A stretch of DNA of 39,465 nucleotides from an uncultured Candidatus Saccharibacteria bacterium. Its GTDB lineage: Bacteria; Patescibacteriota; Minisyncoccia; Phycocordibacterales; DATGWK01. Position numbers and translations under genes: made by a program. Location of the stretch: contig CAYTZJ010000002.1 in NCBI GenBank assembly GCA_964442475.1, positions 1 to 39,465 on the forward strand, in the 5' to 3' direction. Below, in pieces: positions 14,276-37,418 of this stretch (its first letter is position 1; each line of letters begins with the position of its first letter). Under the pieces are notes generated by a model that did no database searches, was not told the origin of the DNA, and saw only the letters and a list, made by a program, of their open reading frames with translations.

Positions 14276-14526
14276 ATTTCTATATATAAATACTACTACT
14301 AATACTAGTGTTGTGGATATCTTGATAACTCAAGAATTCCCTTTAAAAATAAGGCTAAATTCGTATTTTTTATCCCCACACTCTGTTTATAAAAAAGAAC
14401 TATATGTGTGTTGAGCCACCCAGTTGGGGAAATCCCTAGTTTTTGTCCCCAACTTATTTTCTGCAATCCCGAGGTTTTGAAGTGTTTTTCAGTAGTTTTC
14501 ATGGGTTTATTCAGAGGTTATTAACA
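14276..14526. other. Candidate oriC segment (dnaA-dnaN intergenic)
   Basis: DnaA-box-like 9-mers TGTGGATAT (14312-14320) and TTATCCCCA (14369-14377), each 8/9 to TTATNCACA. AT-rich tatatataaatactactactaat (14281-14303). Perfect 9 bp inverted repeat AGTTGGGGA/TCCCCAACT (14422-14430 and 14446-14454). Confidence 0.45.
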
Positions 14527-16704: not shown

Positions 16705-17454
16705 ATGTCATTTCTCTATCACACCCTCGTTTACAACCCCCTATATAACGGACTGATTTATTTAATGGATGTGTTGCCGTGGATTGATGCTGGCCTTGCG
16801 ATTGTTATTTTTACTATAATCGTCAAGCTCATTCTCTTCCCTCTTTCCAAGAAGGCCGTAACTACTCAGCTTAAGATGAAGAAGGTTGAGCCGGAACTTA
16901 ATGCGCTTAAGGAAAAGTATAAAGATGATAAACAGCTACATGCAAAAAAAACCATGGAGCTTTATCGAACCAACGGAATCAACCCTTTTGCTGGAATTAT
17001 TTTGATTTTAATCCAACTCCCAATAATCATTGCTCTCTATCGGGTGTTCTTGTCTGGTTTTTCCAATATTGATGCGAGCATTCTTTATTCGTTCGTTCAT
17101 GTGCCAATTGCGATAAATACAGAGTTTCTTGGTCTTGTGGACATAACTAGCAAAAGCCTAATTTTGGCGCTTCTTGCGGGTGTTTCTTCGTTTATACAGG
17201 TTAAGCTTTCTGTTCCTCCGGTATCAAAATCAGAAAAGTTACGCGAAAATATGACCAAAGAAGAGCGTTTTAAACATGACCTAACAAGAAGTATGGGTTT
17301 GCAAATGAGATACATGCTCCCTGCCCTTGCGTTTTTTGTTTCTTGGACAATTTCTGGCGCAATTGCAGTGTATTGGATCACAAGCAATCTTTTCTCCATC
17401 GGACAGGAGTTGGTAATTCGTCGCTCTATTAAGAAAGCTGAAGCAAAAAGTTAG
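16705..17454 (+). CDS. yidC: Membrane protein insertase YidC (short form)
   Basis: Follows rnpA. Multi-TM, with LSKKAVTTQLKMKKVEPELNALKEKYKDD and NPFAGIILILIQLPIIIALY, typical of YidC/Oxa1. Confidence 0.85.
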   Translation: MSFLYHTLVYNPLYNGLIYLMDVLPWIDAGLAIVIFTIIVKLILFPLSKKAVTTQLKMKKVEPELNALKEKYKDDKQLHAKKTMELYRTNGINPFAGIILILIQLPIIIALYRVFLSGFSNIDASILYSFVHVPIAINTEFLGLVDITSKSLILALLAGVSSFIQVKLSVPPVSKSEKLRENMTKEERFKHDLTRSMGLQMRYMLPALAFFVSWTISGAIAVYWITSNLFSIGQELVIRRSIKKAEAKS

Positions 17455-18683
17455 ATTTTAAGTCCCCACAATTTCGAATCTGTTTTGTTTGTGAAAATAA
17501 TATACTTTTCCTCCGGGTCTAGATTGAGGTTGATGGCATCAAGGGAATTTTTTTGCTGAACGGTGTCAACAAGAAGTTTGTTTGCACCAGTGAGTGTGTC
17601 GATTTGCCAGATACTGTCTTCGAAATTAACTCTACCCTGATACCAATCATCGGGATACCGTGCATTTGTAATTGTTCTAGGTATTGCACAGTAGATATAT
17701 GTATTTTTTGCAGACCACACACATTTTTCTGCTAGGGTTTGTAGGCTTAGTTCGTTTACTTCACCATTTTTAATGTTTAAAACACTGGTTTTGAAACCAC
17801 CGTTGGTGCTTTCTGAGTAAAGAATTTGAGTGCCGGTTTGATTTGAAATGGCAGAAAGACCAGTTGGACCACCCATAATGCGACTGAGGAGGCCGTTGTT
17901 TGTTTTAAGGAAATAAAGCTGACCACTTGCGAGAGCGCTCGGCTTTGTCATGAGTGCGATGGTGTCTTTGTTTATCCAAGAAATAGTGAAATCTTTAATG
18001 ACTGATTCAAAGATTTGTTTTGGGTTTGTTGCGGTCGAAATGAGTATCCGTGAACCGTTTGGATTTGTTGTGATGTATGCCAATGTCCCCTCTTGAGGGT
18101 TTGTGGTAATGCTCTGAATGTTGTCTGGCAAAAAAGATGTTCTGAGTTCTTCGAGCATCTCCCCTTCGAGAGAGCGGGTTGTGATTGGGGTAAATTTTCC
18201 TGTTACTGTTTTGATGGTCTCTTCGTCATTTGCCAAGTATTGAAGCGTGAGTGTTTTGCCATCTTTTTGCCAGATTGCTTCGTATACTTTCGGAACAGTT
18301 GTGTTGGAAATTCTTTTCGAACCGGTAAGAGTGAGTTTACTTTCAAAAACGTTACCGGTTGTTTTGTCTACATAGCGGACAGTTGGTGTGCCGGAAGCGT
18401 TGAATACCACCGCACCTGATTGTGGTTCGCTCGAGATCTGCCAGAGTTTTGGTGGTGTTGTTGGAATGTTGGGTACTGGATTAGATGTATTTCCAGTATT
18501 TCCTGATGGTTGTATGTCGGAGTTATCTCCACTTGTTCCGAACGGAAAAAGGTCACCAATGCTTACACCGTCACTGAATGGGTTTTGCTGCCCAGATTCT
18601 TTTTGGCTGAAAAACCAATATGCACCGTAACCAATAAGTCCGAGTATGATGAGGATTATCGAGATTCTAAGAAAGGTTTTCAT
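17451..18683 (-). CDS. Membrane-anchored extracytoplasmic beta-rich (propeller-like) protein; last gene of the T4SS-like operon
   Basis: N-terminal TM (ISIILIILGLIGYGAYWFF), a G/N/P/T-rich linker, then about 330 aa of repetitive beta-strand-like sequence. Lies 3 nt after the pilin gene. Confidence 0.6.
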   Translation of the reverse strand: MKTFLRISIILIILGLIGYGAYWFFSQKESGQQNPFSDGVSIGDLFPFGTSGDNSDIQPSGNTGNTSNPVPNIPTTPPKLWQISSEPQSGAVVFNASGTPTVRYVDKTTGNVFESKLTLTGSKRISNTTVPKVYEAIWQKDGKTLTLQYLANDEETIKTVTGKFTPITTRSLEGEMLEELRTSFLPDNIQSITTNPQEGTLAYITTNPNGSRILISTATNPKQIFESVIKDFTISWINKDTIALMTKPSALASGQLYFLKTNNGLLSRIMGGPTGLSAISNQTGTQILYSESTNGGFKTSVLNIKNGEVNELSLQTLAEKCVWSAKNTYIYCAIPRTITNARYPDDWYQGRVNFEDSIWQIDTLTGANKLLVDTVQQKNSLDAINLNLDPEEKYIIFTNKTDSKLWGLKI

Positions 18684-18686
18684 TGT

Positions 18687-19391
18687 TTATTGAGTTGGAC
18701 CCTGGATTAAATTCGTAGGATTTCTTTCGCACTGAATTTGCACTTGGTTGTGGTCAGGGCTACATTCTCCAGGATTGAGTGGTCTTACTATTGCTGGTGG
18801 AGTTTTTGGAGGAAAATCGTTGCACTGTCTTAGGGCTATCCGTGAAGAGTTTTCGTTGTTTGCATCAAAAGAAAATGAAGCTTTTGATGTTTTGTAATCC
18901 GGAGCACTTCTTGTGGTGGAAACGCATTTAAATGTTTTTTGCCAAGTTTCAAAAATAGGGGTGTTGGGAGTAGTTGTGCTTGTTTCTTGCGGGGCTTGTA
19001 TTGGTGTTGGGTTAAGACTGAATGTAAGAATGCGAGGATTTACGGTGTTGAGAATTAACCAGGCTCCAATGGCTAAAATGAGGCCATAGATTGCTTGGGT
19101 GATTCTTTCTTTGCCATCCTCTTTGCCACTGATTACATCAGTCGACATGTACTCTACTCCGCCAATCGTAATCTGAATGACAGCCAGAACCGCCGCTAAA
19201 CCGAGGGTTAATTTAAAAATAGCTACTAAGTATTCGGGTAAGTTTGATGCTGCTGCTTCTGTAACACCTGGTAATGGCGCTAGTGGTGTGTAGTCGATGG
19301 CTGATACGACTTCCGCACCCACTATTCCCAAAATGAGTAACACTAGTGTGTTGAGGAAACCGAAACCAATTTTTTGCCAGTTTATTTTCAT
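18687..19391 (-). CDS. VirB2/TrbC-like T4SS pilin with a roughly 110 aa Cys-containing C-terminal extension
   Basis: Signal/TM, YTPLAPLPG, two hydrophobic helices (LAAVLAVIQITIGGVEYM and AIYGLILAIGAWLILNTVNP), then a tail carrying 4 Cys. Confidence 0.65.
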   Translation of the reverse strand: MKINWQKIGFGFLNTLVLLILGIVGAEVVSAIDYTPLAPLPGVTEAAASNLPEYLVAIFKLTLGLAAVLAVIQITIGGVEYMSTDVISGKEDGKERITQAIYGLILAIGAWLILNTVNPRILTFSLNPTPIQAPQETSTTTPNTPIFETWQKTFKCVSTTRSAPDYKTSKASFSFDANNENSSRIALRQCNDFPPKTPPAIVRPLNPGECSPDHNQVQIQCERNPTNLIQGPTQ

Positions 19392-19396
19392 ATTAT

Positions 19397-20407
19397 TTAA
19401 AATACTGATTGTGTCTGAGGTGGGGCGTCTGTGCCGTAGGTTGCGTACATTTTACCATCCGTATTTTGCAAAAATCTTTCTAGATTTTTAATCTGTAGTG
19501 ATATGAGTGATCGACCACCTTCCCCACCTTCTGGGGTTCTGACAATGATTGTGTTCTGTACCTGATTTATTTTTGAGTCATTAAGAGCCCAGTCGTATGT
19601 AAGAAGGTTTGATTTCTTTTGTGAATTTGAAAAAAAGAATGGTACTCCGATGATCCGGGCCTCAGAATTCGTAATTACAAAATCCTTATTATTAAGTGCT
19701 TGGCTTGATCGAATACCATACAGTGGGTGATTTTCGTAAAACACTACCTCGGGGGCTGAGTTGGGAATTAAAATTGATGCCTGAGAGCCGTATAGGTTGT
19801 CGGTTGATGTGATTTCAACAGATACATTTATTGGTTTGATAAGGATAGAGGGAGTAATGATAAATGTTTTTTTCCCGTAACCGGATGCGTTTGCTTTTAC
19901 GTTATCATCGAGTTTCCATTTATAAACAAGATTATCGGGATTTAATCGAGTTCCCTCTTTATTTATGATAAATGGTTCAGCGTAGATGGTGATGGGATCT
20001 TGAGCTGTATGGAGAGCTTTGCCTTTGTAAAATGGTGGCGTGTATGTATCAGCTTGCCAGATAAGATCGGTTACACTTGGCCGAAGAATGAGGCTTTTTA
20101 CAACCCCACCCATATTGATATCGACTTTGGTTGCTGTTCCAAGGTCGCCGGTTTTAATCGAAATGTTTTTTATACCAATACCAGAGCTCACAGCTTTTCC
20201 ATCGACCGACCAGGTCATTTCTGTTTTGTTTAGATCACGAGAAAAGTCTTCTACGTTGATTATTACCGTTTCAAAGGGTTTAGGATGTACTGGAGTAATA
20301 TTTACCCTCAACGCTTCAGATTGAGCGTGTGTGTTCTGTGCCGTGAAAACAAAGAAAAACACAAAGACACATAGTACTGTAGATCGTAATTTAACAAACA
20401 AATACAT
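19397..20407 (-). CDS. Secreted hypothetical protein, Ig-like beta-sandwich appearance
   Basis: Signal peptide ending TAQNTHAQS. No TM afterwards; beta-rich repeats. Lies in the operon. Confidence 0.6.
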   Translation of the reverse strand: MYLFVKLRSTVLCVFVFFFVFTAQNTHAQSEALRVNITPVHPKPFETVIINVEDFSRDLNKTEMTWSVDGKAVSSGIGIKNISIKTGDLGTATKVDINMGGVVKSLILRPSVTDLIWQADTYTPPFYKGKALHTAQDPITIYAEPFIINKEGTRLNPDNLVYKWKLDDNVKANASGYGKKTFIITPSILIKPINVSVEITSTDNLYGSQASILIPNSAPEVVFYENHPLYGIRSSQALNNKDFVITNSEARIIGVPFFFSNSQKKSNLLTYDWALNDSKINQVQNTIIVRTPEGGEGGRSLISLQIKNLERFLQNTDGKMYATYGTDAPPQTQSVF

Positions 20408-20424
20408 AAAAATATTTTAGCACG

Positions 20425-20835
20425 TTAGAGGGTCTTTCTGTTCACGTTAGCAACAGTTGGATTGATTTTGTTTGTAGTTTCAGGTGTTTTGGCCGCAACC
20501 TTTATTGCACCCTTCATGTCACCACCCAAGGCTCCTTGAACTATCGGTGGTAGCTTTGATTGGAAATACATCACGATGATTGTTGCGGTCCATGCTGGCA
20601 GTATTTGTAAAAAAGGAATGATTTCAATGATAGAACCAATGGCAAGGGTGGTCGCCCTGTTTTTGTTAAATTTGATGCCATTAATTTTGAACCAAAACCA
20701 AAAACCCAAGGTGGCCACAATGTTGATTATTGTTCCCAAAATTGGAATCCATGTTATGCAGTCAATTAGAATTGCTGTGCCCAACATGAGGAAAAATGTA
20801 GTTTTGTCTAAATGTTTTTCTGAGGATGGATTCAT
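20425..20835 (-). CDS. Small integral membrane protein (about 3 TM)
   Basis: The hydrophobic segments are FFLMLGTAILIDCITWIPILGTIINIVATLGFWFWF and LAIGSIIEIIPFLQILPAWTATIIVMYF. The start overlaps the VirB4 stop. Confidence 0.6.
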   Translation of the reverse strand: MNPSSEKHLDKTTFFLMLGTAILIDCITWIPILGTIINIVATLGFWFWFKINGIKFNKNRATTLAIGSIIEIIPFLQILPAWTATIIVMYFQSKLPPIVQGALGGDMKGAIKVAAKTPETTNKINPTVANVNRKTL

Positions 20836-22655
20836 TATTCTTCACTCTCTGCTAAATCTTTTTTGGCTTGTTCGATAGCAAGCACCTGTGATGGGTCGGA
20901 AGTAATAATCTGGTCTTCGGTGTATGAGGCAATGATTTTGATGGCAACATGTTTCAAACCAGCAAAAAAGATGCCCTCTCCTACCCCTGATTCGAGAAGC
21001 AAATACTTTTCCTCTTCAGTAAGGTTAAACGTTTGTTGAAGTCGATCAATCGATGTTGGAGATTGTTTTAAGAGTAGTTGAATAGAAGAGTTGGTAATGA
21101 TTGGCAAACCATATGGAGATTTCATAAAGTCGTCGACGTCTTGGGTGATCGTTGCAAGGCCGAGATAATATTTTCGACCGCGTTTTGCAAGTGAAAGCAA
21201 AAACGAAGCTGTGTCTTCTGATTTCATCATCCACCACGCTTCGTCGATAACAAGAAGTCGGCGTTTTAATTCTTTTCGAATGGCATTCCAAATGTAATGA
21301 GTAACAATGTACATTGCAATTGGTTTGAGCTCATCCTCCATGTCTCGAAGCGAAAACACGATCAATTTTTTATTGATATCAATATTGGTTGGACGATTGA
21401 TGAAGCCCGCCCAAGTACCCTTGGTGTATTTGGTTAGTCGTTGCGCTAGTGATTCCCCACCATCCATACCAGAGAGCACGAGTTCAAAATCCGACATAAG
21501 TGGAGGTTCAATATTTCGAAAATCAGAATCGGCAGTAATGTCTTTTAGCGCGTATGTTTCTGTGATTGCTGCGTCTATGATTGCATCCTCTTCGGGGGTA
21601 AGGCCGCCCATCATGAGACGGAAGAGTCCAATAAGATTAATGATGTTTGAACGCAACACGGATGCTCCGGACTCGTCTTGACCAGGAACAGGAAGGTCAA
21701 ATGGATTGATGTGGTGTTCTGAGTTAAGCGAAATTTTAAAGTATCGTCCTCCGACGGCTTCTGCCAAGTACTCATATTCCCTTTCAGGATCGATAACCAA
21801 TACTTCTGTATCAAACATTAACGTACGAAGAATTTCGAGCTTAGTTGCGTATGATTTACCCGCACCAGACTTTGCAAATGTAATTGAGTTGTAGTTTTCC
21901 AAAGAAAATCTGTCAAAAAGAATAAGGCTTGAATTGTGTCGGTTGATGCCAAACAAAATTCCTTTGTCTGATGTTAAGTCGAAAGAAATGAATGGGAAAA
22001 GGCTTGAGAGTGGAGACGAGTTGAGACGTGAGTGTACCTCGAGTAGGTCAGTTGCGATCGGAATAACACTCTTGAACCCTTGTTCTTGTTGAAATAGTGC
22101 CGGCTTAACATACACAAGCTTTGCTTCGAGAATAGATTTAATTTCTGACTCAGTATTGTCGAGCTCCTGCTCGCTTTCAGCGTAAATAGTGATGTATAGC
22201 CCAACCTCAAAGATTTTTTCTTGTGCTTGTTGAAGACTGTCTCGAAGATTTTCAAGGTCTTGATACGCGGTATCGAGCATTGGATCTCGAACCATACCCT
22301 TGTTTTCTCTTTCATGAATCTGGGCTTGAACTTCAGCAACCTTTTTCTGAAATTGTCTAAGTGCAGCAACGGTGTCAATTGGATGAACAAAAATCGACAC
22401 ATCGAACACCTTGTCGAGATTAATAACTGGCGCAAACCAACTTTCATTGAGAAATCGTGGATATGAAATAACAAAAAATGTTCGGACGAATTTGTCTCCC
22501 AGATTTAATTCTCGTGGCCCAACCTTGAGTGCACTTGGTGCAATGATATCTTTGAGCTCGAGCGACTCAGCTTGGGCCATTTGTTGTGGCAAAAAAGGTA
22601 CTGCTTGTGCAAGTTTTTGTTCTTCTTTCTTTTTAAATAATCCAAATAAGGCCAT
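20835..22655 (-). CDS. virB4: VirB4/TrbE-family T4SS ATPase
   Basis: Walker A FAKSGAGKSYATK and Walker B RRLLVIDEAWWMM. The N-terminal region (IAPSALKVGPRELNLGDKFVRTFFVISYP) resembles monoderm VirB4 proteins. Confidence 0.85.
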   Translation of the reverse strand: MALFGLFKKKEEQKLAQAVPFLPQQMAQAESLELKDIIAPSALKVGPRELNLGDKFVRTFFVISYPRFLNESWFAPVINLDKVFDVSIFVHPIDTVAALRQFQKKVAEVQAQIHERENKGMVRDPMLDTAYQDLENLRDSLQQAQEKIFEVGLYITIYAESEQELDNTESEIKSILEAKLVYVKPALFQQEQGFKSVIPIATDLLEVHSRLNSSPLSSLFPFISFDLTSDKGILFGINRHNSSLILFDRFSLENYNSITFAKSGAGKSYATKLEILRTLMFDTEVLVIDPEREYEYLAEAVGGRYFKISLNSEHHINPFDLPVPGQDESGASVLRSNIINLIGLFRLMMGGLTPEEDAIIDAAITETYALKDITADSDFRNIEPPLMSDFELVLSGMDGGESLAQRLTKYTKGTWAGFINRPTNIDINKKLIVFSLRDMEDELKPIAMYIVTHYIWNAIRKELKRRLLVIDEAWWMMKSEDTASFLLSLAKRGRKYYLGLATITQDVDDFMKSPYGLPIITNSSIQLLLKQSPTSIDRLQQTFNLTEEEKYLLLESGVGEGIFFAGLKHVAIKIIASYTEDQIITSDPSQVLAIEQAKKDLAESEE

Positions 22656-22696
22656 ATATTTGTCTCAAATCTTAAAAACGAATTTCAAATCTATAA

Positions 22697-23362
22697 TCAT
22701 GTTTTTGATTCGGCGAGCTGGATCGGTTTTTCGGCATCTCCGGGATTAAAAATTTTGTAGAAAAGTTCGATCACTTCTTCTGTTCCAAGCTCTACAACTC
22801 GAACTCCACATCGCACCAACCCCTGTTCTACTACTGCGATTCTTTGTTCAAGCTGGGTTCGGTGTTCTTCGAATGAATCTTCTTCGGTGTGACCACCCTT
22901 CCCTTTTTTGGTTGGTAGAAGTCCCTTAATCATGTCGAGTTTGGAATCGCCCTTTTTGGTCTGAAGAGGTCCAGGAGTATATGGAATGACGATAAAAAAA
23001 TGTTTCGTCATAATGTTGGTGTTTTTGGTAAAACTTTTGATGAATTCAAGAGAGTCTTGTGTCTGAATTTGCATCAGGTCGTTTGATTGTTTTTTTTCTT
23101 GTTGCTCCATTAGGGCAATATACGGACGAATGTCGAGTTTGCGAGACTGTAAAAAGATTTGAATCGAGAAATCGAGTGAATTTAAAAAATCTTGGAATTG
23201 ATAGATGATAGCTTGACGTTCATCCTCTGATTTAAGAGAAAAATTAATTGAAGATGTGAGCACAAGTGCTCGAAGTGAACCGTCCTTGAGAACGATAATA
23301 CCGTCTCTCACTTCTTTGATGGGTACATATTCTTGTGTTGCTCGTGCGTTTACTGATGCCAT
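22697..23362 (-). CDS. Stand-alone protein resembling a VirB4 N-terminal domain (no P-loop)
   Basis: The N-terminal part, VPIKEVRDGIIVLKDGSLRALVLTSSINFSLKSEDERQAIIYQFQDFLNSL, has the same pattern as VirB4 N-domains. So does the C-terminal VRVVELGTEEVIELFYKIFNP. The gene sits between the VirB3-like and VirB4 genes. Confidence 0.45.
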   Translation of the reverse strand: MASVNARATQEYVPIKEVRDGIIVLKDGSLRALVLTSSINFSLKSEDERQAIIYQFQDFLNSLDFSIQIFLQSRKLDIRPYIALMEQQEKKQSNDLMQIQTQDSLEFIKSFTKNTNIMTKHFFIVIPYTPGPLQTKKGDSKLDMIKGLLPTKKGKGGHTEEDSFEEHRTQLEQRIAVVEQGLVRCGVRVVELGTEEVIELFYKIFNPGDAEKPIQLAESKT

Positions 23363-23376
23363 GGTGTGATTATAAC

Positions 23377-23796
23377 TTACTTCAACTCATCATCTGATGT
23401 TGGGTTGTTACTTTGTTTTACATCAAGATTCCACATGAGGTCATGAAGTTTGCTTTCGGAAAGTTTTGGAACGAGTGATGGGTCGATTGGTTTTTTGTCT
23501 TGAGCTTTTGAGGTTTTTTCTTCATGTTTCCAGAGATATAGTTTGTTTGTAATGCTGTATTTAAGGTAGGCTTCAACAACTCTGATGAAGGGTTGGTTAT
23601 TTACTTTGTAAAAAGCCAGCAGACCACCAAGTGCCGCTACCGGAAGTGCAAAAAATATTGCTAAAAACTTCGGTAGAAATGAAAAAAGTATAACAATCAA
23701 ACCAACAGAACCACCGAGATAAATAAATTGCTTGAACGTAAGGGGTCCAATGATTTTGTCTTCTACGTCAGTGAATTGTGGTACTTGGAATCGCAT
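23377..23796 (-). CDS. PrgI-family / VirB3-like membrane protein
   Basis: MRFQVPQFTDVEDKIIGPLTFKQFIYLGGSVGLIVILF followed by a second TM is the hallmark PrgI N-terminus. Confidence 0.75.
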   Translation of the reverse strand: MRFQVPQFTDVEDKIIGPLTFKQFIYLGGSVGLIVILFSFLPKFLAIFFALPVAALGGLLAFYKVNNQPFIRVVEAYLKYSITNKLYLWKHEEKTSKAQDKKPIDPSLVPKLSESKLHDLMWNLDVKQSNNPTSDDELK

Positions 23797-23797
23797 T

Positions 23798-24724
23798 TTA
23801 TTCTATTGGTTCGCGGTATGGATCAATTCCATCACGTGGTCTGCTTGGTTGTGATGTGTTCGTTGAAGATCTGAATATTCTACTAAGTTTTTGATCAACG
23901 ATACTTCCTCCGATATGCGTCGAGGTTTTATTTGTCTGATGTGGCATAACATTCTGACTATGAAGATGAACACCATCAACTCTTTCCGTTTCTTTGTGGT
24001 CCATGAGCATGTGGTCAGGGTTTGTTTCTGGCCCCTTTTTTACCACACCTGCTTTTGAAGGATTGGGAATGAAGGGATTAACTGGTTCAGGCCGAATTGG
24101 TTCTGGTTTAGATTCTGTTGGTGTGAAGACTTCTGCTGTAAGTGGCGGAGTTGTTTCGATTTTCCCCTCTTGGACTTGTCTCAGCTCATTCATTACTGCG
24201 CCAAAAATTTGAGCATTAGCGTCAAAGGCAATTTTGAGTGCTTGGTCATATGTAACGTCGAGTTTTTGGACTATGTTTAAGCGAAAATCTCTGAGTTGAG
24301 TTTTGCCGGAAATTACATTTTCTATTTCTTTCTCAAATCCCAGTCTTTGGTTTTCTGAAAGGTTGTATTTTTGTACTAATTCTGTCACAAGGGGTTTGAT
24401 GTTATTTAGATAGGTTGATTCTTTTGTTGCGCCTCGAATTTTTACTAACACAGAGTTTTGAACTTCATCGTTAATTGTTTTTGCTTTCTGAGAGTCAAAA
24501 CGAAAGATAATTGAAAGATTATTTGTAAATGAAGAGACTGGCTGAAGCCCGAGCGCCGATTGGGAAACAAGATCAACGAAATCTGACGTTTCTTGATCGT
24601 TAAGGTTGTATTTTTTTGCGATTCCCCAAACCAATTCTGAGGTTTCAGGTGCCATAAATACCTCTCTTGCTGGTTCTGGCAGTTTTTTGTACGCAGCTAA
24701 TATCTGTTCTTTTGAGTATTTCAT
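23798..24724 (-). CDS. Cytoplasmic hypothetical protein with two helical repeats and a Pro-rich disordered tail
   Basis: No signal peptide or TM. Repeats begin KKYNLNDQE... and QKYNLSENQ... The ATG at 24724 (MKYSKEQ) is preferred over the overlapping track start at 24769. Confidence 0.6.
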   Translation of the reverse strand: MKYSKEQILAAYKKLPEPAREVFMAPETSELVWGIAKKYNLNDQETSDFVDLVSQSALGLQPVSSFTNNLSIIFRFDSQKAKTINDEVQNSVLVKIRGATKESTYLNNIKPLVTELVQKYNLSENQRLGFEKEIENVISGKTQLRDFRLNIVQKLDVTYDQALKIAFDANAQIFGAVMNELRQVQEGKIETTPPLTAEVFTPTESKPEPIRPEPVNPFIPNPSKAGVVKKGPETNPDHMLMDHKETERVDGVHLHSQNVMPHQTNKTSTHIGGSIVDQKLSRIFRSSTNTSQPSRPRDGIDPYREPIE

Positions 24725-24728
24725 TGCT

Positions 24729-26900
24729 TTAGAATAAACCCTTGCCCATACCGCTGGTGATGTAATCAAAGAGTGGGCCTCCTCTTGGGCTCGTTCGTCT
24801 TATTTCCGCACCAATTGTCTGTAGTGTGGTTGAGTCTTGTTCATCAGGCATCTTTGAAAGCATTGCGGGTGTCAGCTGTGAAATTACATGAGGATTTGTA
24901 AGAATTGCCGAATCAAGTTTTGCAACATTTTGCAGCTTCATTCTCTTGAGTTCGATGGAAATATCTTGTCGTACGGCGGCTATTTGGGCAGGGGTTGCAG
25001 TAGCAGGAAGTGCGGTTGCACGATCCACAGCGTCTTTAAGTGCTCTGCTTCGTTCATCTCGGACCATTTTTTTCTGAGCAGCTGTGATTCTTGCGCTTTT
25101 AAGGAAACCTTCAACTTGGCTGTCACTCATGTGACCAATAAACCTTTGACCCTCAGGTGTTGTGCTGTTAAGCATTGTTGAGTCAATGAGTTCCATTTCT
25201 TTGTCAGAAATTGCACGGACAGCTTGTCGGGCTGTGGGATCATTGTTTGCAATAAGATTCTTAACGTTCTTAAATCGTTCCTCACGAACCTTTGATCGCT
25301 CCTGTTCATTAAACTTCTCACTTTTTTCAAGAATATGTTCAACCTGACTAGGGCTAAGTCTTTCAATATGAGGTGCAATACCCTTGTAACCAAGACTGTC
25401 AATTTCTTTTGTTGTCATGCGGTTGAGAATGCGTTGCGCATCGTCTTTCTGAGTAGGGGTTGCTGTTGCTAGAGTTGCGATCTTAAGTTTTGCTTTGTCA
25501 CTTCGTTCCTCTGCCTTGTTTGCAATGTCTGTTTTAAGCTCCTTAAGCTCCTTGTCCTGATCCTTGAATGATTTGTCTCCACCGAACTTAGATTTAGTAA
25601 GCGCACCGGTTGTAAGTCCCCGAACAAAGCGAGAAGTCCTTCCGTCCAATCCCTTGTTTTCGAGATACTTGTCTGCTTTTGATCCGTATCTTCCGATTGT
25701 ATTCCGGCCGAAGTATCCCTGCGCTTCTTTTCTTTTACTATCAAGTGTTTTGAGTGCTGCTCCAGCGCCGTACGCACCGAACTTTTCTGCAACTATGAGT
25801 GCACCGATGATCATGGCGATTACGATGGCGTAACTTAGAAATGTTTCGCCAGCAATTTGTGATGGACCGCCCGCATTGCCGAGAAATGCTTGTATCAAAT
25901 CAGGTTTTGCTCCTGCTGGATATATAACACCATTGATTTTTCCGAGTACCTTTAATGTCGCCCACATTGTTAACATAAATGCAGGAGCAAAAATACAATT
26001 TTTGATCAAAGGCTCCTTCCACTTGTCTGAATATTTGTCGTTCGGCAATGCCATTGCACCAAAGGCTAGTGGTGAAAGTACGAACAAGAAAATGAGCGTC
26101 ACCAGTCGCGCTAAGAACATTAAACCTGCAGCAAGAAACACAAATGCAGTTATTAAGAAAAATATTGACCCCACTACTCCTCTTACGATGATGTTTCCAA
26201 AATCATCTTGGGCTCCACCAATGATTATGTTGGTGAGTGCGTCTTTATCCCATGTTGTTTGCAGACCCATATGACACATAAAGGCCTGGCTTAAGCCACC
26301 AGCCGGCGCACCGCCTGGACCACAGGGGCTGTTGATGATTTGGTTGTAAAAACTAACACTTAGTATGTTTGATGCGTCAACGGCAACTTTTGTAAAAAAG
26401 AAACTGAAATTAAGCAAAAGTGCAACCACTACCACTCGCACAAGAGTTTTTCGCATGTTTACTCCCGTGCCAAGAATTGTGCTGATTGCAATGTAAAGAA
26501 TAATGAAGATAAACGACATGTTTGCAATATCGCGGAATGTTGACCATGCAGAATTTACCCCTTCCGAACCTATAATTGCACCCATTTTCACGATTGATAT
26601 GCTAATCACCTTTTCCAAAAATAGTCCGGCGACATACAAAAGCAAACTTGTGATTCTCAGAAATGCTTCTGAGAGTACGTTAACAGCTGCTTTCATAACA
26701 CCCCAACCCAGCTCTGCGGCAGAAGGAATTATGGAAGGGCCTGCTGTTGCAGCTGCTGCAGCTGCTGCAGTAATAAAGTTAATTGGAACTTGGGCGTTTG
26801 CGATGTTGTTGATTGGCGTAAGCACAAGCATAAAAATTACAACAAATAACAATGTTGTTTTTTTAAAAAATGCTTTTATTTTGTGCTTAGAATCAAACAT
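24729..26900 (-). CDS. Polytopic membrane protein, VirB6/TrbL-like, with a roughly 330 aa cytoplasmic repeat-containing tail
   Basis: Signal/TM followed by an Ala tract (AAAAAAATAG), and at least 6 hydrophobic helices across aa 60-390. The hydrophilic tail carries three degenerate repeats (LSPSQVEHIL, MSDSQVEGFL, LTPAMLSKM). Confidence 0.55.
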   Translation of the reverse strand: MFDSKHKIKAFFKKTTLLFVVIFMLVLTPINNIANAQVPINFITAAAAAAATAGPSIIPSAAELGWGVMKAAVNVLSEAFLRITSLLLYVAGLFLEKVISISIVKMGAIIGSEGVNSAWSTFRDIANMSFIFIILYIAISTILGTGVNMRKTLVRVVVVALLLNFSFFFTKVAVDASNILSVSFYNQIINSPCGPGGAPAGGLSQAFMCHMGLQTTWDKDALTNIIIGGAQDDFGNIIVRGVVGSIFFLITAFVFLAAGLMFLARLVTLIFLFVLSPLAFGAMALPNDKYSDKWKEPLIKNCIFAPAFMLTMWATLKVLGKINGVIYPAGAKPDLIQAFLGNAGGPSQIAGETFLSYAIVIAMIIGALIVAEKFGAYGAGAALKTLDSKRKEAQGYFGRNTIGRYGSKADKYLENKGLDGRTSRFVRGLTTGALTKSKFGGDKSFKDQDKELKELKTDIANKAEERSDKAKLKIATLATATPTQKDDAQRILNRMTTKEIDSLGYKGIAPHIERLSPSQVEHILEKSEKFNEQERSKVREERFKNVKNLIANNDPTARQAVRAISDKEMELIDSTMLNSTTPEGQRFIGHMSDSQVEGFLKSARITAAQKKMVRDERSRALKDAVDRATALPATATPAQIAAVRQDISIELKRMKLQNVAKLDSAILTNPHVISQLTPAMLSKMPDEQDSTTLQTIGAEIRRTSPRGGPLFDYITSGMGKGLF

Positions 26901-26902
26901 AT

Positions 26903-28120
26903 TTATTCAACATCTACAGCCGAAGAACAGATTTGAAAAGCATTTTGTCCACCCTTTGTGACACGTACCTGAGCAGTTTTTCTTCCGGTATTATCGTACC
27001 CGATCAATGCTCTTTCAGTCGTAATGCGACCAATTCCATCACTACCAAAGCCATCACCACTCCAGAGATATGTGACACTATCGCCAGAACCACCTGTAAC
27101 AAATGCGTACCATGTAACAAGTTCCCCTATTGTTGCGGTGGTTTTGTCTGGATAACAAGACACTTCAAGCGGGCTGGCTTGTTGAGCTCGAAGAGAACCA
27201 TAGTTTGAACCACCAGCACCAAAGCTTGAAAGTCCTTTTGTTAATACTGTTTGAGCTAGTTGTCCAACAAGAGCGCCAACGATCTCGTTGATTTCATCTG
27301 CAAGCTCAAGTTGGCGAATGCCAGTACCAAGCGTATTTTCGAGCTGATTTTCGATTACCGTACCTGGTGTTTGTATTTCACTATATTCTTTACACTCCCC
27401 GGTTTGAGGGTCGCTCAAGATACAATCTCGATACGAAAGAAACCCCTGACCCCAATTTGCTTCCAAAAGTTTGATTGACTGACCACGCGCAGTTCTGATC
27501 GAAAGCTCTGTTTCTGCTGCAAGATATGCACCAACTGGATTGTTTTGAGAATTTTGGCTGATTGAAAACCAAGAATCCCACCCCCCTTGGCTGAAGTCTC
27601 CATTGGTAAATTTGGCAAAGTTTTCTGTATTGCGAATCGCATCAGTTAGACGACAATAATTTCTTTGTACATATGTAGATGAATAGTTGATTGCCAAAGC
27701 GGATCGAATGTCGAGCGAAAATGGTTCACAAACAAAACCAAGTTCTGTACCTGCGATAAAGTTACCAGCGATCTGGTCACCTACATCAGCAAAGAAACTT
27801 TCGGGATTAGAGATGAATGCTGGATTGCCTTGGAAGCCAGAGTTGATCCAGGTCACAATTGAGTTGGTGATGTTGCTAATGATGATCTGTGTCGAAGCTT
27901 TAAGAACCCCGTCCAAAATATATTCTTTTTGATTGAGGGCCGTGCTGTTTACTGATGTATTGGTAATCGCCGCTTGATTCACAACATCCCCCACTGGAAC
28001 GAATTGGGCTGAAACTTTTGTTGGAATAAAACTAAACGCGCTTAAAATCATTGCCATCACAAATAACAAAACAGTTTTCGGGATTAGTTGGAATGTTTTT
28101 TTAAAAAATCCTGTATTCAC
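26903..28120 (-). CDS. Secreted hypothetical protein with a C-terminal PKD-like domain. GTG start.
   Basis: Signal peptide ending KVSAQ, paired Cys residues, and C-terminal VTYLWSGDGFGSDG (PKD-like WxxGDG). Lies 1 nt after the upstream stop. Confidence 0.6.
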   Translation of the reverse strand: MNTGFFKKTFQLIPKTVLLFVMAMILSAFSFIPTKVSAQFVPVGDVVNQAAITNTSVNSTALNQKEYILDGVLKASTQIIISNITNSIVTWINSGFQGNPAFISNPESFFADVGDQIAGNFIAGTELGFVCEPFSLDIRSALAINYSSTYVQRNYCRLTDAIRNTENFAKFTNGDFSQGGWDSWFSISQNSQNNPVGAYLAAETELSIRTARGQSIKLLEANWGQGFLSYRDCILSDPQTGECKEYSEIQTPGTVIENQLENTLGTGIRQLELADEINEIVGALVGQLAQTVLTKGLSSFGAGGSNYGSLRAQQASPLEVSCYPDKTTATIGELVTWYAFVTGGSGDSVTYLWSGDGFGSDGIGRITTERALIGYDNTGRKTAQVRVTKGGQNAFQICSSAVDVE

Positions 28121-28121
28121 G

Positions 28122-29132
28122 TTATTGAATAGTTTTTACGAACAGTGCTCCAAATTCGTTTTCATCAAAGGTTACGCTGTTTTTTTCAAACTCTGCTGTA
28201 ATGTCTTGGATGCTTTTTTGGAATAGTTCAACATCAGAATAGTAATTTCCCACCCCTACAATCCCAATGAGTGGATCTGTAAATATTTGGCGAAATCCTT
28301 CAATGTCACTCAGGAGTTTGCTTGTGCTGTTGAGAAGAGCAAGGTGTTTGTCTGTCATGTTTTGTGGAACAGGTACAGTAGCAAGACTGTTTAAAATTGC
28401 AGTGTAGCCCTTGATGATTGGATCAAGTTTTTCGATCTCGTTTTCTTTATTGTTGAGAACAGCAGTAGAAAGAATATCCATTTCGCTTATTTTGCTTTCC
28501 GTCCTACCTTCATAGAATGCAAGTCCGAGATTGTTGCCATATGTTTTCAGATCAGAAACCGCACTGAGTTTGATATCGGTAGCGGAATATTTTTTAAAAA
28601 TAGGATCAAAATTTTTATTTGAAAATGTTTCGCTAATGATTTTATTCTGTGTTTGAGAATCAAAAACTACACCTGTTTTTTTTGCTTCAAGATAGTTTGA
28701 AAAAAGCTTCCGTCCAATTTCACCGGTTTTTGTTTTATCTGATTCGACTTGGATAACCGCTTTTGTTTTTGTTGAATTGTCGAGATCGGTTATTTTGTCG
28801 TTTGGACCGGCCTTGAGTGGATTGCGGTTTGTTTTGACTTCATCACCGTCGGATGTTCCGTCTTTGTCTGTATCGGGGTTCTTCGTGTCTGTTCCCCACA
28901 ATACTTCTTCCCAATCTTGAAGATTGTCCTCGTCGGTATCGGTCCCGTTGTTTTTTATTGTTGCTTTGATTATTTCGGCAACTTGAGATTTGTTGTCCGC
29001 AACATAAATCGAATGTGGTGTCTCTCCACCACGAACTTTTGTTGCATACACAGCAAATCCGATGGTACTTACTCCCACAAGGCACGCAAAAGCAAGAAAA
29101 AAGATTTTTCTGTTCGGTTTGACAGAACTCAT
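28122..29132 (-). CDS. Membrane-anchored protein with thrombospondin type 3-like Ca-binding repeats; first gene of the operon
   Basis: N-terminal TM (IFFLAFACLVGVSTIGFAVY), then DTDEDNLQDWEEVLWGTDTKNPDTDKDGTSDGDE, then a domain of about 230 aa of unknown type. Confidence 0.6.
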   Translation of the reverse strand: MSSVKPNRKIFFLAFACLVGVSTIGFAVYATKVRGGETPHSIYVADNKSQVAEIIKATIKNNGTDTDEDNLQDWEEVLWGTDTKNPDTDKDGTSDGDEVKTNRNPLKAGPNDKITDLDNSTKTKAVIQVESDKTKTGEIGRKLFSNYLEAKKTGVVFDSQTQNKIISETFSNKNFDPIFKKYSATDIKLSAVSDLKTYGNNLGLAFYEGRTESKISEMDILSTAVLNNKENEIEKLDPIIKGYTAILNSLATVPVPQNMTDKHLALLNSTSKLLSDIEGFRQIFTDPLIGIVGVGNYYSDVELFQKSIQDITAEFEKNSVTFDENEFGALFVKTIQ

Positions 29133-29138
29133 AGTAAA

Positions 29139-29147
29139 ATTATACCA
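29139..29147 (-). promoter_or_regulatory. Extended -10 (TGGTATAAT) placed 6 nt upstream of the first ATG of the T4SS-like operon
   Basis: The reverse complement of attatacca (29139-29147) is TGGTATAAT. It is followed by TTTACT and then ATG (29132). Confidence 0.55.
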
Positions 29148-29244
29148 AATAAATTGTTGATGTTCCCCATTCTTTCAGGGGATATTGAACAAAACCTTGA
29201 AATAGAATTTTGTTTTGCAAAATATTCGGAGTATTATTGATTTA

Positions 29245-30333
29245 ATGCCTCATTCTTTTGGAAAAATTACAGCTCTTTTTTTTGTGTGTGTTGTTTTTTC
29301 ATTTTTTGTCTGTATTACTAATGCAACTGCACAAACCAACAAACCAACTTTCTTTTTTATTCGTGATTTGAAGGAGGGATCAAGTGGCAATGATGTGTTG
29401 GAGTTGCAAAAACTCCTCAACAAAGACCCAGATACACGTATTGGGGGTACCGGGATTGGTTCTCAGGGCCAAGAATCTAGCTATTTTGGAAAAATTACTA
29501 AAGATGCTGTTACTCGATTTCAAAATAAGTATAGTACCGACATTCTTCGTCCAGCTGGGCTCACTCAAGGAACAGGAAATGTTGGTCTCTGGACTCGACT
29601 AAAGCTCAATCAGATACTCATTAATGCCCAAATTGCCCAAACACCACCATACTCAGACACCGAGGATTTTAAAGATGAATCAGAAGAAGTAATTTCACCT
29701 GAGATTGACGTTGTTACTTCAAAAACGGCTGCAAATAAGCTTAATTCCTTTATTTTAACAAACAATACTAAGGATTTAAGCCTTTCTTCTCTTTCTCGCT
29801 ACTCTGGAAAGGCTGGGTCAACAATCACATTGGCCGGAACTGGTTTTGCTAAAGAGAATACAGTGCGCCTAGGTGTTCAAAAAATAGAAAAAATGGCTTC
29901 ACAGAGCGGTAGAGAGATCAAATTTACTATACCAGAATCAACAAAGCCAGGTAGATACGACATTTCTGTCGTATCTGGAGGTAAAACCTCAAATACCATG
30001 CCTTTTATGGTGACCGTGCCCAATGGCATTGCTCCAATTGTTACCCAAATTGAGCCAAAACAAGCTAAATTTGACCAAGAAATCAAGGTTTTTGGCCAAA
30101 ATTTTACCAAAACTGACAATATTATTAGTTCTCATCTTGGAATAATTAAAAACATCTCGTCTCCTGACGAAAAAACCTTGTCGTTTTCAATTCCACTGCC
30201 TAAATATATGACTGATCCTCAAAAGTGGTTTGGAAGTAAGGATAATTTATACTGGCCCGTTACTTTATATGTGATAAATGAGAATGGAATTAGTAAACCT
30301 GGCCCTGCATCAAGCTTTATAATAAATATATGA
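29245..30333 (+). CDS. Secreted protein with a peptidoglycan-binding domain and two IPT/TIG-like domains
   Basis: Signal/TM (ITALFFVCVVFSFFVCITNATAQ). The PG-binding-1-like motif is GNDVLELQKLL...YFGKITKDAVTRFQNKY. IPT-like segments are GSTITLAGTGF and IKVFGQNF. TATTAT lies 7 nt before the ATG at 29245. Confidence 0.65.
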   Translation: MPHSFGKITALFFVCVVFSFFVCITNATAQTNKPTFFFIRDLKEGSSGNDVLELQKLLNKDPDTRIGGTGIGSQGQESSYFGKITKDAVTRFQNKYSTDILRPAGLTQGTGNVGLWTRLKLNQILINAQIAQTPPYSDTEDFKDESEEVISPEIDVVTSKTAANKLNSFILTNNTKDLSLSSLSRYSGKAGSTITLAGTGFAKENTVRLGVQKIEKMASQSGREIKFTIPESTKPGRYDISVVSGGKTSNTMPFMVTVPNGIAPIVTQIEPKQAKFDQEIKVFGQNFTKTDNIISSHLGIIKNISSPDEKTLSFSIPLPKYMTDPQKWFGSKDNLYWPVTLYVINENGISKPGPASSFIINI

Positions 30334-30722
30334 GTTTTTTTTCAAGATTTTCCTCAAAGTCACGACTGAGAATTTTATCGGCTTTTATTTTGCTTATTGG
30401 TTCTGCTACTTCTTTGGGAATTTTTTTATATAGTCGGGCAGAGTGTTCGGGTTTGCCTTTTGGTGGACTAGTTGTTTGGACAAGACCCTGCAGTTGCAGT
30501 GGAAATTTTCTTATAAGTGTTTCGGGTCCGCTTGGGGGTGAGTTTGTGTATTATCCAGGCACTCAAGCTTATGAAAGTTTTAATCTTGGCTTACAAAATA
30601 ATATGTGGGTTTTGGGTTTGTATACACCAGGAGGTGTATGTTCGGCTCTTGAGGGCGAGTGCACGACAATACCAAGTCAGGGCACAATCACACCTACGGT
30701 TGGCACATCTCCTACTTTTTAG
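30330..30722 (+). CDS. Small secreted Cys-containing hypothetical protein
   Basis: Signal/TM, then 5 Cys (AECSG, PCSCSG, VCSALEGEC). The ATGA overlap with the upstream gene suggests translational coupling. Confidence 0.55.
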   Translation: MSFFSRFSSKSRLRILSAFILLIGSATSLGIFLYSRAECSGLPFGGLVVWTRPCSCSGNFLISVSGPLGGEFVYYPGTQAYESFNLGLQNNMWVLGLYTPGGVCSALEGECTTIPSQGTITPTVGTSPTF

Positions 30723-37052: not shown

Positions 37053-37418
37053 TTACATGTGAGCCTTACAAGTGATTGCGGCTGGATTTGCTTCGAGCCT
37101 GTCCAATTCAATTTTTTCGCCACCAATTTCACAAATCCCAAAATTATTACCAGATGAAATTTTTTCTAATGCTCTTTCTACTTCGTTAAACCGGGTTTCT
37201 AATTGTTTCAAAATTGCAGTATGGTCTTCATATTCTTCAATGCGAGTTCCTTCATCGTTTGTGTCTGCTTTTGTTGCTTCATCTGCTTCTGGTGGAGTCG
37301 CTTCCCAATCTTTTGGATTGTCGGGATTAATTCGTCCAACCGATTCAAGTTCGCTTTGCAATACTTTCTTTTCTGATTCCAGCTTATTTTTGAAATTTTG
37401 AATTTGTTCGTTAGTCAT
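37053..37418 (-). CDS. DksA/TraR-family protein with a degenerate zinc finger
   Basis: Coiled-coil N-terminal part, then FGICEIGGEKIELDRLEANPAAITCKAH. This matches the DksA C-terminal pattern, but the four Cys are reduced to C...C-x2-H. Confidence 0.7.
   Translation of the reverse strand: MTNEQIQNFKNKLESEKKVLQSELESVGRINPDNPKDWEATPPEADEATKADTNDEGTRIEEYEDHTAILKQLETRFNEVERALEKISSGNNFGICEIGGEKIELDRLEANPAAITCKAHM

Follow-up and report, generated by a model that had tools for sequence, protein, structure and literature searches.

We examined a 39,465-base stretch of DNA from an uncultured patescibacterium (the whole of metagenomic contig CAYTZJ010000002.1 of GenBank assembly GCA_964442475.1; hereafter the window), which carries housekeeping genes throughout, at about 40% GC, and a gene cluster resembling a type IV secretion system (T4SS). 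This cluster consists of eleven closely packed open reading frames (ORFs) on the minus strand, running from 29132 down to 17451 (11.7 kb). Proteins lacking an established name are designated o1 to o11 by their place in the cluster, and the genes are listed here in that order.

28122-29132, minus strand: o1, an anchored or secreted protein with one N-terminal hydrophobic segment and a DxDxDG calcium-binding (TSP3-like) motif
26903-28120, minus strand: o2, a secreted protein with a signal peptide, a conserved helical N-domain of ~290 amino acids (aa) and a variable PKD/Ig-like C-terminal domain
24729-26900, minus strand: an extended VirB6/TrbL-like polytopic protein of 723 aa, with a signal peptide, 6-7 transmembrane helices and a helical tail
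23798-24769, minus strand: o4, a cytoplasmic, fast-evolving protein with no transmembrane segment and no signal peptide
23377-23796, minus strand: a PrgI/VirB3-like protein with two transmembrane segments
22697-23362, minus strand: a TrsD-like protein, the VirB4 N-terminal domain as a gene of its own, cytoplasmic and with no hydrophobic segment
20835-22655, minus strand: a VirB4 ATPase of 606 aa that holds the central and the C-terminal domain; its Walker A motif reads SGAGKSY and its Walker B motif VIDEAWW
20425-20835, minus strand: o8, a small membrane protein with 2-3 transmembrane segments and the conserved motifs WFK..G and LP.WT
19397-20407, minus strand: o9, a secreted protein with a signal peptide and Ig-like beta-sandwich modules
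18687-19391, minus strand: a VirB2-type pilin with a signal peptide, two hydrophobic helices and a variable C-terminal domain of ~115 aa that has four cysteines
17451-18683, minus strand: o11, with one N-terminal transmembrane anchor

A preliminary description of this DNA had reported the eleven ORFs with gaps of -1 to 41 nucleotides (nt). The coordinates stand, as does the spacing at every junction except that of o4, whose longest ORF begins at a TTG and overlaps virB6 by 41 nt; an in-frame ATG at 24724 would give a gap of +4 instead. Just two GGAGG motifs occur in the window, and one of them stands before this TTG start (stretch 24725-24769). The GC content of the cluster (0.40-0.42) lies within that of its flanks (0.36-0.42), as had been remarked. 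The description had further named four T4SS components from their translations, a VirB4 ATPase, a PrgI/VirB3-like protein, a VirB6-like protein and a pilin, and each of these identifications is borne out by the profile, orthologue and structural evidence below.

Relatives were gathered by scanning one genome per GTDB species with VirB4. At least 576 were found, and the best 80 loci (L001-L080) were used; their VirB4 proteins are 77-87% identical to that of the window, and all come from metagenome-assembled genomes of Paceibacteria/Parcubacteria. Synteny was judged in the 45 loci having full 10-kb flanks.

VirB4, in which both Walker motifs are readable, passes the curated threshold of NCBIfam NF045971, the CD1110-family model for a VirB4-like conjugal transfer ATPase (374.6 bits, cut-off 325), and covers positions 174-733 of the 752 in that profile. 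It also matches PF19044 (E 1e-25) and the VirB4 C-terminal domain of PDB 4ag5 (E 2e-41), and its ATPase domain gives a partial match to CedB (E 4e-9). The neighboring TrsD-like protein matches this CD1110 VirB4 profile over positions 2-118 (E 7e-8), VirB4_plasma over positions 101-233 (E 5e-11) and NF041427 TrsD (E 1e-4), while its residues 4-208 align with residues 23-197 of the unsplit 797-aa VirB4 of the C. botulinum plasmid pCDC3875 (E 2e-6). The same division, into proteins of ~212 aa and ~606 aa, is kept across relatives in 77-78 loci. Judged from these alignments, VirB4 is encoded in two pieces, the TrsD-like N-domain by one gene and the ATPase by another, and this split is the conserved state. 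A match of the TrsD-like ORF to a PHROG family labeled 'terminase large subunit' (E 7e-8) was dismissed as a labeling artefact, as four VirB4/TrsD NCBIfam models and the alignment with the plasmid VirB4 N-domain agree. The seven ORFs other than the four named components had all been taken for generic surface proteins bearing signal peptides or membrane anchors. This does not hold for two of them, the cytoplasmic TrsD-like protein and o4.

The PrgI/VirB3-like protein matches PF12666 (E 7e-13), can be aligned with the PrgI encoded on clostridial plasmid pCDC3875 and is found in 45/45 loci at 51% identity. Identification of the VirB6-like protein is less direct. The window protein itself has no Pfam match, but TrbL/VirB6 (PF04610) is matched by 4 of 29 orthologues, and homologues in the databases carry PF04610/PF19590, some of them under the name 'type IV secretion system protein'. 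In its AlphaFold model the membrane core (residues 60-380) is predicted at a pLDDT of 85-97, and a fold search of 350,542 PDB chains with this model returned R388 TrwI/VirB6 as its four best hits (8rtd_L, 8rt9_F, 7o3v_J/F), with modest scores (probability 0.96-1.0, TM-score 0.37-0.43, E 8e-3 to 0.1). A search of PDB sequences with the orthologue profile gave nothing beyond coiled-coil noise from the C-terminal tail. On the orthologue Pfam matches, the named homologues and the TrwI fold match taken together, we accept the product of 24729-26900 as a VirB6 protein. Its tail, helical and ~300-340 aa long, follows a lysine/arginine-rich stretch (residues ~420-723; 24729-25640) and is probably cytoplasmic; an internal repeat within it is weak (E 0.028). 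Orthologues range in length from 607 to 1195 aa.

The pilin scores above the cut-off of PF18895 (31.3 bits, cut-off 26.6), a family also found in 29/29 orthologues, six of which match TrbC/VirB2 (PF04956) as well. Conservation is confined to a core at residues ~30-120, after which come a linker and the four-cysteine domain (residues ~120-234). This tail is not conserved between orthologues, whose total lengths run from 148 to 555 aa, and a single pilin gene is present in 64 of 67 loci, pilin arrays being what is reported for Saccharimonadia. For both the pilin and VirB6 there are weak matches, almost full in length, to NCBIfam models from integrative and conjugative elements (ICEs) of mycoplasmas (Mbov_0395 pilin-like and its neighbor MMCAP2_0566; E 0.02-0.05); a weak match of VirB6 is to the mycoplasma ICE protein NF045848. 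These matches hint that VirB2-like pilins may exist inside the mating-pair formation class FATA (MPF-FATA), which would bear on the question of where the Patescibacteria pilin originated, left open in PMC12102498.

A comparison of synteny across relatives, which had been set beforehand as a check, found one essentially fixed order in the 45 loci: pcrA, rsmA, [o1, o2, virB6, (o4), prgI, trsD, virB4, (o8), o9, pilin, o11], yidC, rnpA, dnaA, dnaN. Rates of divergence within this arrangement differ widely. In an all-against-all comparison of 37 species, with the window left out, identity between species was 80% for VirB4, 63% for TrsD, 61% for DnaA and 50% for PrgI; 49% for RsmA, 48% for DnaN and 46% for YidC; and 31% for o9, 30% for o11, 29% for o2 and 25% for VirB6. 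Because the loci were picked by VirB4 similarity the VirB4 figure is somewhat inflated, but not by 20 points. By this measure the motor is under stronger constraint than the replication initiator DnaA, and the envelope and surface parts diverge fast. Such a pattern fits an indispensable motor joined to quickly diverging, host-facing parts.

None of the ORFs scanned against Pfam across the 39.5-kb window is a relaxase, a VirD4, an integrase or an ATPase of VirB11 size, and no att-like repeats flank the cluster, the direct and inverted repeats detected all being short, chance-level matches. The absence of a coupling protein, relaxase, integrase and att repeats agrees with the preliminary description. 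Its claim that VirB11 is likewise absent stands for proteins of VirB11 size, although the window does encode a PilB ATPase of the VirB11 superfamily at 4996-6678, outside the cluster. The clostridial VirD4 (CD1115-type), SLT hydrolase and VirB6 used as phmmer queries had no match among the 5,752 ORFs that the window and the 80 loci contain. No SLT/CHAP domain of a VirB1-type hydrolase occurs in the eleven operon ORFs, and no ORF has a sequence match to a VirB8-like (NTF2-fold) protein, structure models having covered o2 and VirB6 only. Matches to a VirB7/9/10-like outer-membrane core were likewise absent, and only VirB2/3/4/6 equivalents are present. As read from its gene content, the locus is not a conjugation system. 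Among plasmids, the nearest VirB4 proteins belong to Clostridium, Bacillus, Streptomyces and related monoderms; none exceeds 36% identity, and their annotation is CD1110 family. Given the at least 576 relatives, the order fixed in 45 loci, the flank-like GC content and the lack of att-like repeats, the comparative evidence shows the locus to be vertically inherited, and its affinities derive it from the conjugation machinery of single-membrane bacteria (MPF-FATA).

The accessory proteins offer fewer handles. o2 is secreted, and its family counts at least 638 homologues, none of them named. No Pfam, NCBIfam or PHROG family was matched, and neither two profiles searched against PDB sequences nor tblastn against plasmids returned anything. 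In the AlphaFold model the helical N-terminal part is predicted at a pLDDT of 50-75 and the C-terminal beta-sandwich above 90; PKD folds matching the latter dominated the fold search, and relatives of o2 swap this C-terminal domain for other Ig-like modules. Four of 63 family members weakly match PF13605 DUF4141 (best E 0.0012), and the o2 gene always lies directly upstream of virB6. In VirB-type operons the slot just upstream of virB6 is that of virB5, and in the R388 structure VirB5 caps the VirB6 pentamer. PDB entries 8rt9 and 7o3v are accordingly titled 'Stalk complex (TrwJ/VirB5-TrwI/VirB6)'. We take TraJ of the Bacteroides conjugative transposons to be the equivalent of VirB6. In those elements a DUF4141 protein is listed adjoining traJ (PMC10434189). 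Because of the weak DUF4141 matches and the position directly upstream of virB6, we speculate that o2 is a candidate VirB5/TraI-like stalk or pilus-tip protein.

o1 gives a weak TSP3_bac match, and its orthologue profile matches calcium-binding loops in the PDB (7c7u, E 5e-5); it was detected in 30 of the 45 loci at ~27% identity. The o9 gene is present in 45/45 loci at ~32% identity, with BiPBP_C matched by 8 and Ig_3 by 6 of 28 orthologues. o11, also in 45/45 loci, has weak TolB matches (TIGR02800, E 0.014; PDB 7mx5, E 0.008 with the orthologue profile), and a few of its orthologues match DPPIV_N, PD40 or DUF5050; it is probably a TolB-like beta-propeller. o4 matches no Pfam, NCBIfam or PHROG family and has sequence homologues in only 7 of the 45 loci, yet an ORF of 163-599 aa fills the slot between virB6 and prgI in 60 of 60. 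A small ORF with several transmembrane segments similarly occupies the slot of o8, between virB4 and o9, in at least 49 of 68 loci. o8 has no Pfam family, and the idea that it is a second VirB3 or a pilin paralogue was rejected at hhalign probabilities of 2% and 0.2%.

Two divergent genes lie immediately upstream of o1.

29215-30333, plus strand: d1, an anchored protein with a peptidoglycan-binding domain (PF01471, E 4e-4) and a TIG domain (PF01833, E 4e-10)
30330-30722, plus strand: d2, a small anchored protein with one transmembrane segment and five cysteines

d1 has PHROG endolysin matches (E 6e-5 and 5e-4) on residues 38-180, the N-terminal part with the peptidoglycan-binding domain, and no catalytic domain is matched among these endolysin alignments; d2 matches no family. 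Their membership in the T4SS is uncertain since they are found in only 15 (d1) and 12 (d2) of the 45 loci.

Promoter-like elements were found upstream of the cluster and within it.

29147-29139, minus strand: extended -10 element TGGTATAAT, followed by 6 nt and the o1 ATG at 29132; leaderless-type
23369-23374, minus strand: candidate internal leaderless-type -10 element, TATAAT followed by 6 nt and an ATG, before trsD-virB4
20414-20422, minus strand: candidate internal extended -10 element TGCTAAAAT, followed by 6 nt and an ATG, before o9-pilin-o11

The first of these had been proposed as the leaderless promoter from which all eleven genes are expressed. The element itself is there, and TGnTATAAT or TGATATACT-type elements precede the first gene by 6-11 nt in many orthologous loci; that it should be the sole promoter is doubtful in view of the -10 elements before trsD and o9. 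A -10-like hexamer lies 5-8 nt before the trsD start in 39% of orthologous loci, compared with 11-16% at virB4, dnaA and rsmA, and the leaderless layout occurs at o9 in 62%, trsD in 39% and prgI in 37% of these loci against 5-25% at other genes. Since the layout before o9 and trsD recurs in this way, the operon probably has internal leaderless promoters. Within the window, TANAAT-N6-ATG is found at eight or nine genes, including tsaE, pilB, dksA, o1, trsD, o9 and d2, and Shine-Dalgarno-like sites at 2 of 37. A scan for two-hexamer sigma-70 promoters gave no enrichment and missed the extended -10 elements.

The preliminary description had also placed the cluster next to the replication origin, and the neighboring genes bear this out.

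13172-14275, minus strand: dnaN
14527-15912, minus strand: dnaA
16181-16321, plus strand: rpmH, followed by rnpA and yidC

The sign of the GC skew switches at ~14.4 kb, within the AT-rich spacer between dnaN and dnaA (14276-14526). DnaA boxes are not enriched in the window (13 against 10.9 expected), and two near-consensus boxes lie in that spacer. Because the cluster sits to the right of the skew switch and is transcribed leftwards, it is oriented head-on to replication, and the T4SS cluster of Southlakia epibionticum has the same orientation relative to dnaA. Head-on orientation does not fit easily with a simple rationale of gene dosage or high expression, and the published dosage explanation leaves orientation unaddressed.

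At the distal end of the operon yidC (plus strand) and o11 (minus strand) converge, their stop codons overlapping by 4 bases (17451-17454), so that there is no room for a terminator between the two genes. Terminator-like hairpins between 17000 and 31000 number 25, about twice the 12.2 +/- 3.9 of shuffled sequence, the majority of them on the plus strand, where they are antisense to the operon. Left of the origin the window carries, in order, holA, polA, tsaE, a PilB-type ATPase, ruvB, yebC, ruvC, tyrS/trpS and a class A penicillin-binding protein; beyond the divergent pair d1/d2 follow rsmA/ksgA, pcrA/uvrD, a LysM-M23 peptidase, a ComM-like ATPase, a DksA/TraR zinc-finger protein and an NYN-domain protein. 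An ORF of 372 aa (37477-38595) matches no family, and an Rfam scan of the window returned tRNA-Lys only. Four of the neighbors are placed as follows.

4996-6678: T2SSE ATPase of the PilB/GspE type that bears an MshEN domain; it is a type IV pilus ATPase of the VirB11 superfamily, outside the T4SS cluster
33736-34746: LysM-M23 peptidase, 4.6 kb from the first gene of the operon
35199-36701: ComM-like ATPase of the Mg-chelatase family
37053-37418: DksA/TraR zinc-finger protein

The PilB ATPase stands alone among tsaE, ruvB, yebC and ruvC, with no further type IV pilus genes close by. The ComM-like ATPase and the DksA/TraR protein are 6-8 kb away from the operon.

Machines of this kind have been described in other Patescibacteria. 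Using transposon sequencing, Wang et al. 2023 found an 'apparent T4SS' (SEML1_0006-0019) to be essential for epibiotic growth of S. epibionticum (PMC10633639), whose locus SEML1_0004/0006-0019 is the example of the class studied by experiment. That system is closest to Gram-positive conjugative systems, has essential pilins and has no recognizable coupling or relaxase proteins (PMC10633639); comEC is dispensable in the same organism (PMC10633639, PMC12857230). The published gene tables place a VirB6-like gene, an unnamed gene, PrgI, a TrsD slot and VirB4 on the minus strand just past dnaA, dnaN and recF (PMC10633639). Quinonero-Coronel et al. 2025 detected VirB4 in 2,417 of 3,035 genomes, with most sequences forming a Patescibacteria clade nested in MPF-FATA, and TrsD, PrgI/VirB3, VirB6 and VirB2-like pilins clustering near virB4 (PMC12102498). 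Homologues of the type IV coupling protein (T4CP) are common in these genomes and seldom near virB4, whereas relaxases are few (109 in the 3,035 genomes), rarely near virB4, very different ones not being excludable (PMC12102498). Paceibacteria and Microgenomatia have the locus next to dnaA, dnaN, rnpA, ksgA and rpmH, for which these authors suggest a gene-dosage effect, along with import of DNA or other macromolecules (PMC12102498). A 2024 perspective (PMC11665869) and a 2025 review of T4SS nomenclature (PMC12857230) also cover the Patescibacteria T4SS, and a preprint on a cultured Microgenomatia strain reports host RNA uptake and, where the two cells meet, tubes that 'may be T4SS pili' (bioRxiv 10.64898/2026.06.21.733656).

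We give a probability of roughly 85% to the reading that the locus encodes a Patescibacteria-type T4SS in its Paceibacteria form, a pilus-bearing, non-conjugative translocon for host contact. In outline this bears out the earlier proposal of a domesticated, non-mobile, T4SS-derived machine in a reduced genome, for which profile hidden Markov models, fold matches, synteny and the literature (PMC12102498, PMC10633639) all speak. The parts list, predicted locations, vertical inheritance and selection pattern come from the present analysis; the working steps that follow are drawn from established T4SS biology. The TrsD-like protein and VirB4 would form the cytoplasmic motor, and PrgI/VirB3, the extended VirB6 and the small protein with 2-3 transmembrane segments the platform. 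VirB4/TrsD hexamers would dock on PrgI and VirB6, and this motor would draw pilin out of the membrane and assemble it into a pilus or tube on the VirB6 platform. Both termini of the pilin would face outward, so that the variable C-terminal domain coats the filament. The surface set would comprise four secreted or anchored proteins that evolve fast and bear calcium-binding, helical plus PKD, Ig-like and propeller-like domains. Together with the pilin tail these surface proteins may recognize and breach the host-cell envelope, the surface proteins mediating passage through the cell wall, and the assembled machine would move macromolecules between the epibiont and its host cell.

Several points weigh against this reading. 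For six of the eleven proteins a role is suggested by weak domain hints or just by gene position, the fold match of VirB6 scores modestly (TM-score 0.37-0.43, E about 1e-2), and the operon yielded no VirB8-like or VirB1-like component. Another part of the genome could encode a coupling protein, the contig being only 39.5 kb long. Essentiality has been demonstrated in a single species of Saccharimonadia, and the preprint on RNA uptake draws no genetic link to the T4SS.

Nucleotide auxotrophy is typical of the phylum Patescibacteria, and export of cytoplasmic substrates normally needs a coupling protein of the VirD4 type. As to the direction of transport, we tentatively suggest import of host nucleic acids or other cytoplasmic macromolecules, a suggestion made by analogy and at somewhat less than even odds. 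Systems without a coupling protein include the H. pylori ComB importer and Bartonella Trw, in which only the pilus is kept (PMC11665869, PMC12857230), and the archaeal Ced importer (PMC12102498); S. epibionticum can dispense with its distal T4CP homologue (PMC12102498). Import is favored by the ComB and Ced precedents, the auxotrophy and the RNA-uptake preprint, while export of cytoplasmic substrates is disfavored by a locus that has no coupling protein and by the dispensability of the distal T4CP in S. epibionticum. The machine might nonetheless inject epibiont proteins that manipulate or permeabilize the host, as T4SSs of pathogens do. Export has been the subject of speculation for Saccharibacteria (PMC11665869), and 'DNA or protein delivery' has been proposed (PMC10633639); fast-evolving surface parts fit host targeting, and the cytoplasmic, fast-evolving o4 could be a substrate or a chaperone. 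With no VirD4-type protein in the window or the related loci, a non-essential T4CP in S. epibionticum (PMC12102498) and no effector-like genes recognized in the locus, we regard an effector exporter as unlikely, though worth keeping in view.

The locus could also have kept pilus building while transporting nothing, as proposed for Bartonella Trw, and serve to bind specific hosts. The hypervariable C-terminal domain of the pilin, the variable Ig, PKD and propeller surface proteins, the lack of a coupling protein and the Trw precedent (PMC12857230) would all suit such an adhesin. VirB4 conservation above that of DnaA and an extended VirB6 with a large cytoplasmic tail suggest more than assembly, however, and adhesion in Saccharibacteria is already ascribed to type IV pili (PMC10633639, PMC12857230), of which the window has the PilB ATPase; a role in adhesion alone is thus distinctly unlikely. 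Still less can be said for a remnant or cryptic ICE whose relaxase, coupling protein and integrase are off the contig or too divergent to be seen. Its components do descend from conjugative MPF-FATA systems, the contig is short, and very different relaxases are not excludable (PMC12102498). Yet identical chromosomal neighbors in 45 species, native composition and the lack of att repeats do not suit a mobile element, nor does the finding that no related locus has an integrase, relaxase or VirD4 within ~10 kb. The nearest plasmid VirB4 reaches at most 36% identity compared with 77-87% among chromosomal orthologues, and the scarcity of relaxases recorded in PMC12102498 (109 per 3,035 genomes, rarely near virB4) points the same way. 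We therefore consider a remnant ICE highly improbable.

The host-contact translocon may be extended into a more detailed picture, unlikely as a whole, in which these genes form a Paceibacteria-specific, undescribed host-contact module. The disulfide-bearing pilin tail would decorate the outside of the pilus, o2 would sit on the VirB6 pentamer as a VirB5/TraI-like tip or stalk and present PKD/Ig adhesin domains, and o1, o9 and o11 would span the envelope or bind the host. The VirB6 tail would replace the coupling protein, and the decorated pilus, in a bacterium with a single membrane, would be devoted to importing host nucleic acids.

Few machines are known on which the parasitic way of life of this vast and largely uncultured bacterial branch depends, and the Patescibacteria T4SS is one of these essential machines. 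The window adds no new principle to this; it gives a clean Paceibacteria example with a fully resolved layout of eleven genes. Details that may be useful in choosing structural or genetic targets are the conservation of VirB4 relative to DnaA, set against the fast-diverging surface parts, the variable pilin tail, o2 as a candidate VirB5-like tip, the probable internal promoters and the head-on orientation. The probable leaderless internal promoters, the head-on orientation, the mycoplasma ICE matches of pilin and VirB6, the variable pilin tail and the possibly VirB5-like o2 may be new.

Among known systems outside the phylum, the locus shares with MPF-FATA (CTn2/CD1110 type; pCDC3875, pGO1 Trs, pCF10 Prg/Pcf) a VirB4 above the CD1110 cut-off. 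In pCDC3875 the order is VirD4, hypothetical, VirB6, PrgI, hypothetical, VirB4, hypothetical, SLT hydrolase; the core order VirB6-(x)-PrgI-(x)-VirB4 is the same as here, whereas VirD4 and the SLT hydrolase were not found in the window. The locus differs from MPF-FATA in that no VirD4, relaxase or SLT/CHAP hydrolase was found and in being chromosomal and non-mobile, with VirB4 identity of at most 36% and a VirB6 ~460 aa longer. To our knowledge, MPF-FATA conjugative systems generally lack a VirB2-type pilin. pGO1 has a separate TrsD and a shorter VirB4, as here (PMC12102498). The T4SS of mycoplasma ICEs resembles the locus in that VirB4 and TrsD match the Mbov_0397 model (E 4e-79 and 5e-11), but every score falls below the curated cut-off, and in mycoplasmas the ICEs concerned are mobile. 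The T4SSs lacking a coupling protein (H. pylori ComB for DNA uptake, archaeal Ced for DNA import, Bordetella Ptl and Brucella VirB for export, and Bartonella Trw) share the VirB2/3/4/6 core and the lack of VirD4 at the locus, and Bartonella Trw also has variable pilus components. ComB, Ptl, VirB and Trw differ in being diderm systems with a VirB7/9/10 outer-membrane core, and their sequence relation to the locus is confined to the shared VirB4 family. The resemblance to ComB is functional at most, the ComB2-4/ComB6-10 set not being present here.

The likeness to systems within the phylum is far closer. With S. epibionticum the locus shares the core order VirB6-x-PrgI-TrsD-VirB4 and the direction of transcription relative to dnaA. 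It differs in having one pilin with a long variable tail in place of an array of six short pilins, and no lysozyme or peptidase gene after virB4; no NTF2/VirB8-like gene was recognized. Its set of o1, o2, o8, o9 and o11 is not named in the consulted papers on the Patescibacteria-clade T4SS. The remark in the preliminary description that the accessory parts and function were essentially uncharacterized has been overtaken, since the class has already been published, including its composition, origin-proximal position and essentiality. With the Patescibacteria-clade T4SS the locus has in common VirB4, TrsD, PrgI/VirB3, VirB6 and a PF18895 pilin, a chromosomal locus free of relaxase and T4CP, and a position beside dnaA, dnaN, rnpA, ksgA and rpmH; membership of its VirB4 in the clade is judged from profile score and identities. 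All the features of the class open to testing were found, namely an MPF-FATA-affine VirB4, an adjoining TrsD, PrgI and VirB6, a pilin and a chromosomal, origin-proximal locus without a relaxase, and the locus is a typical Paceibacteria member of that class.

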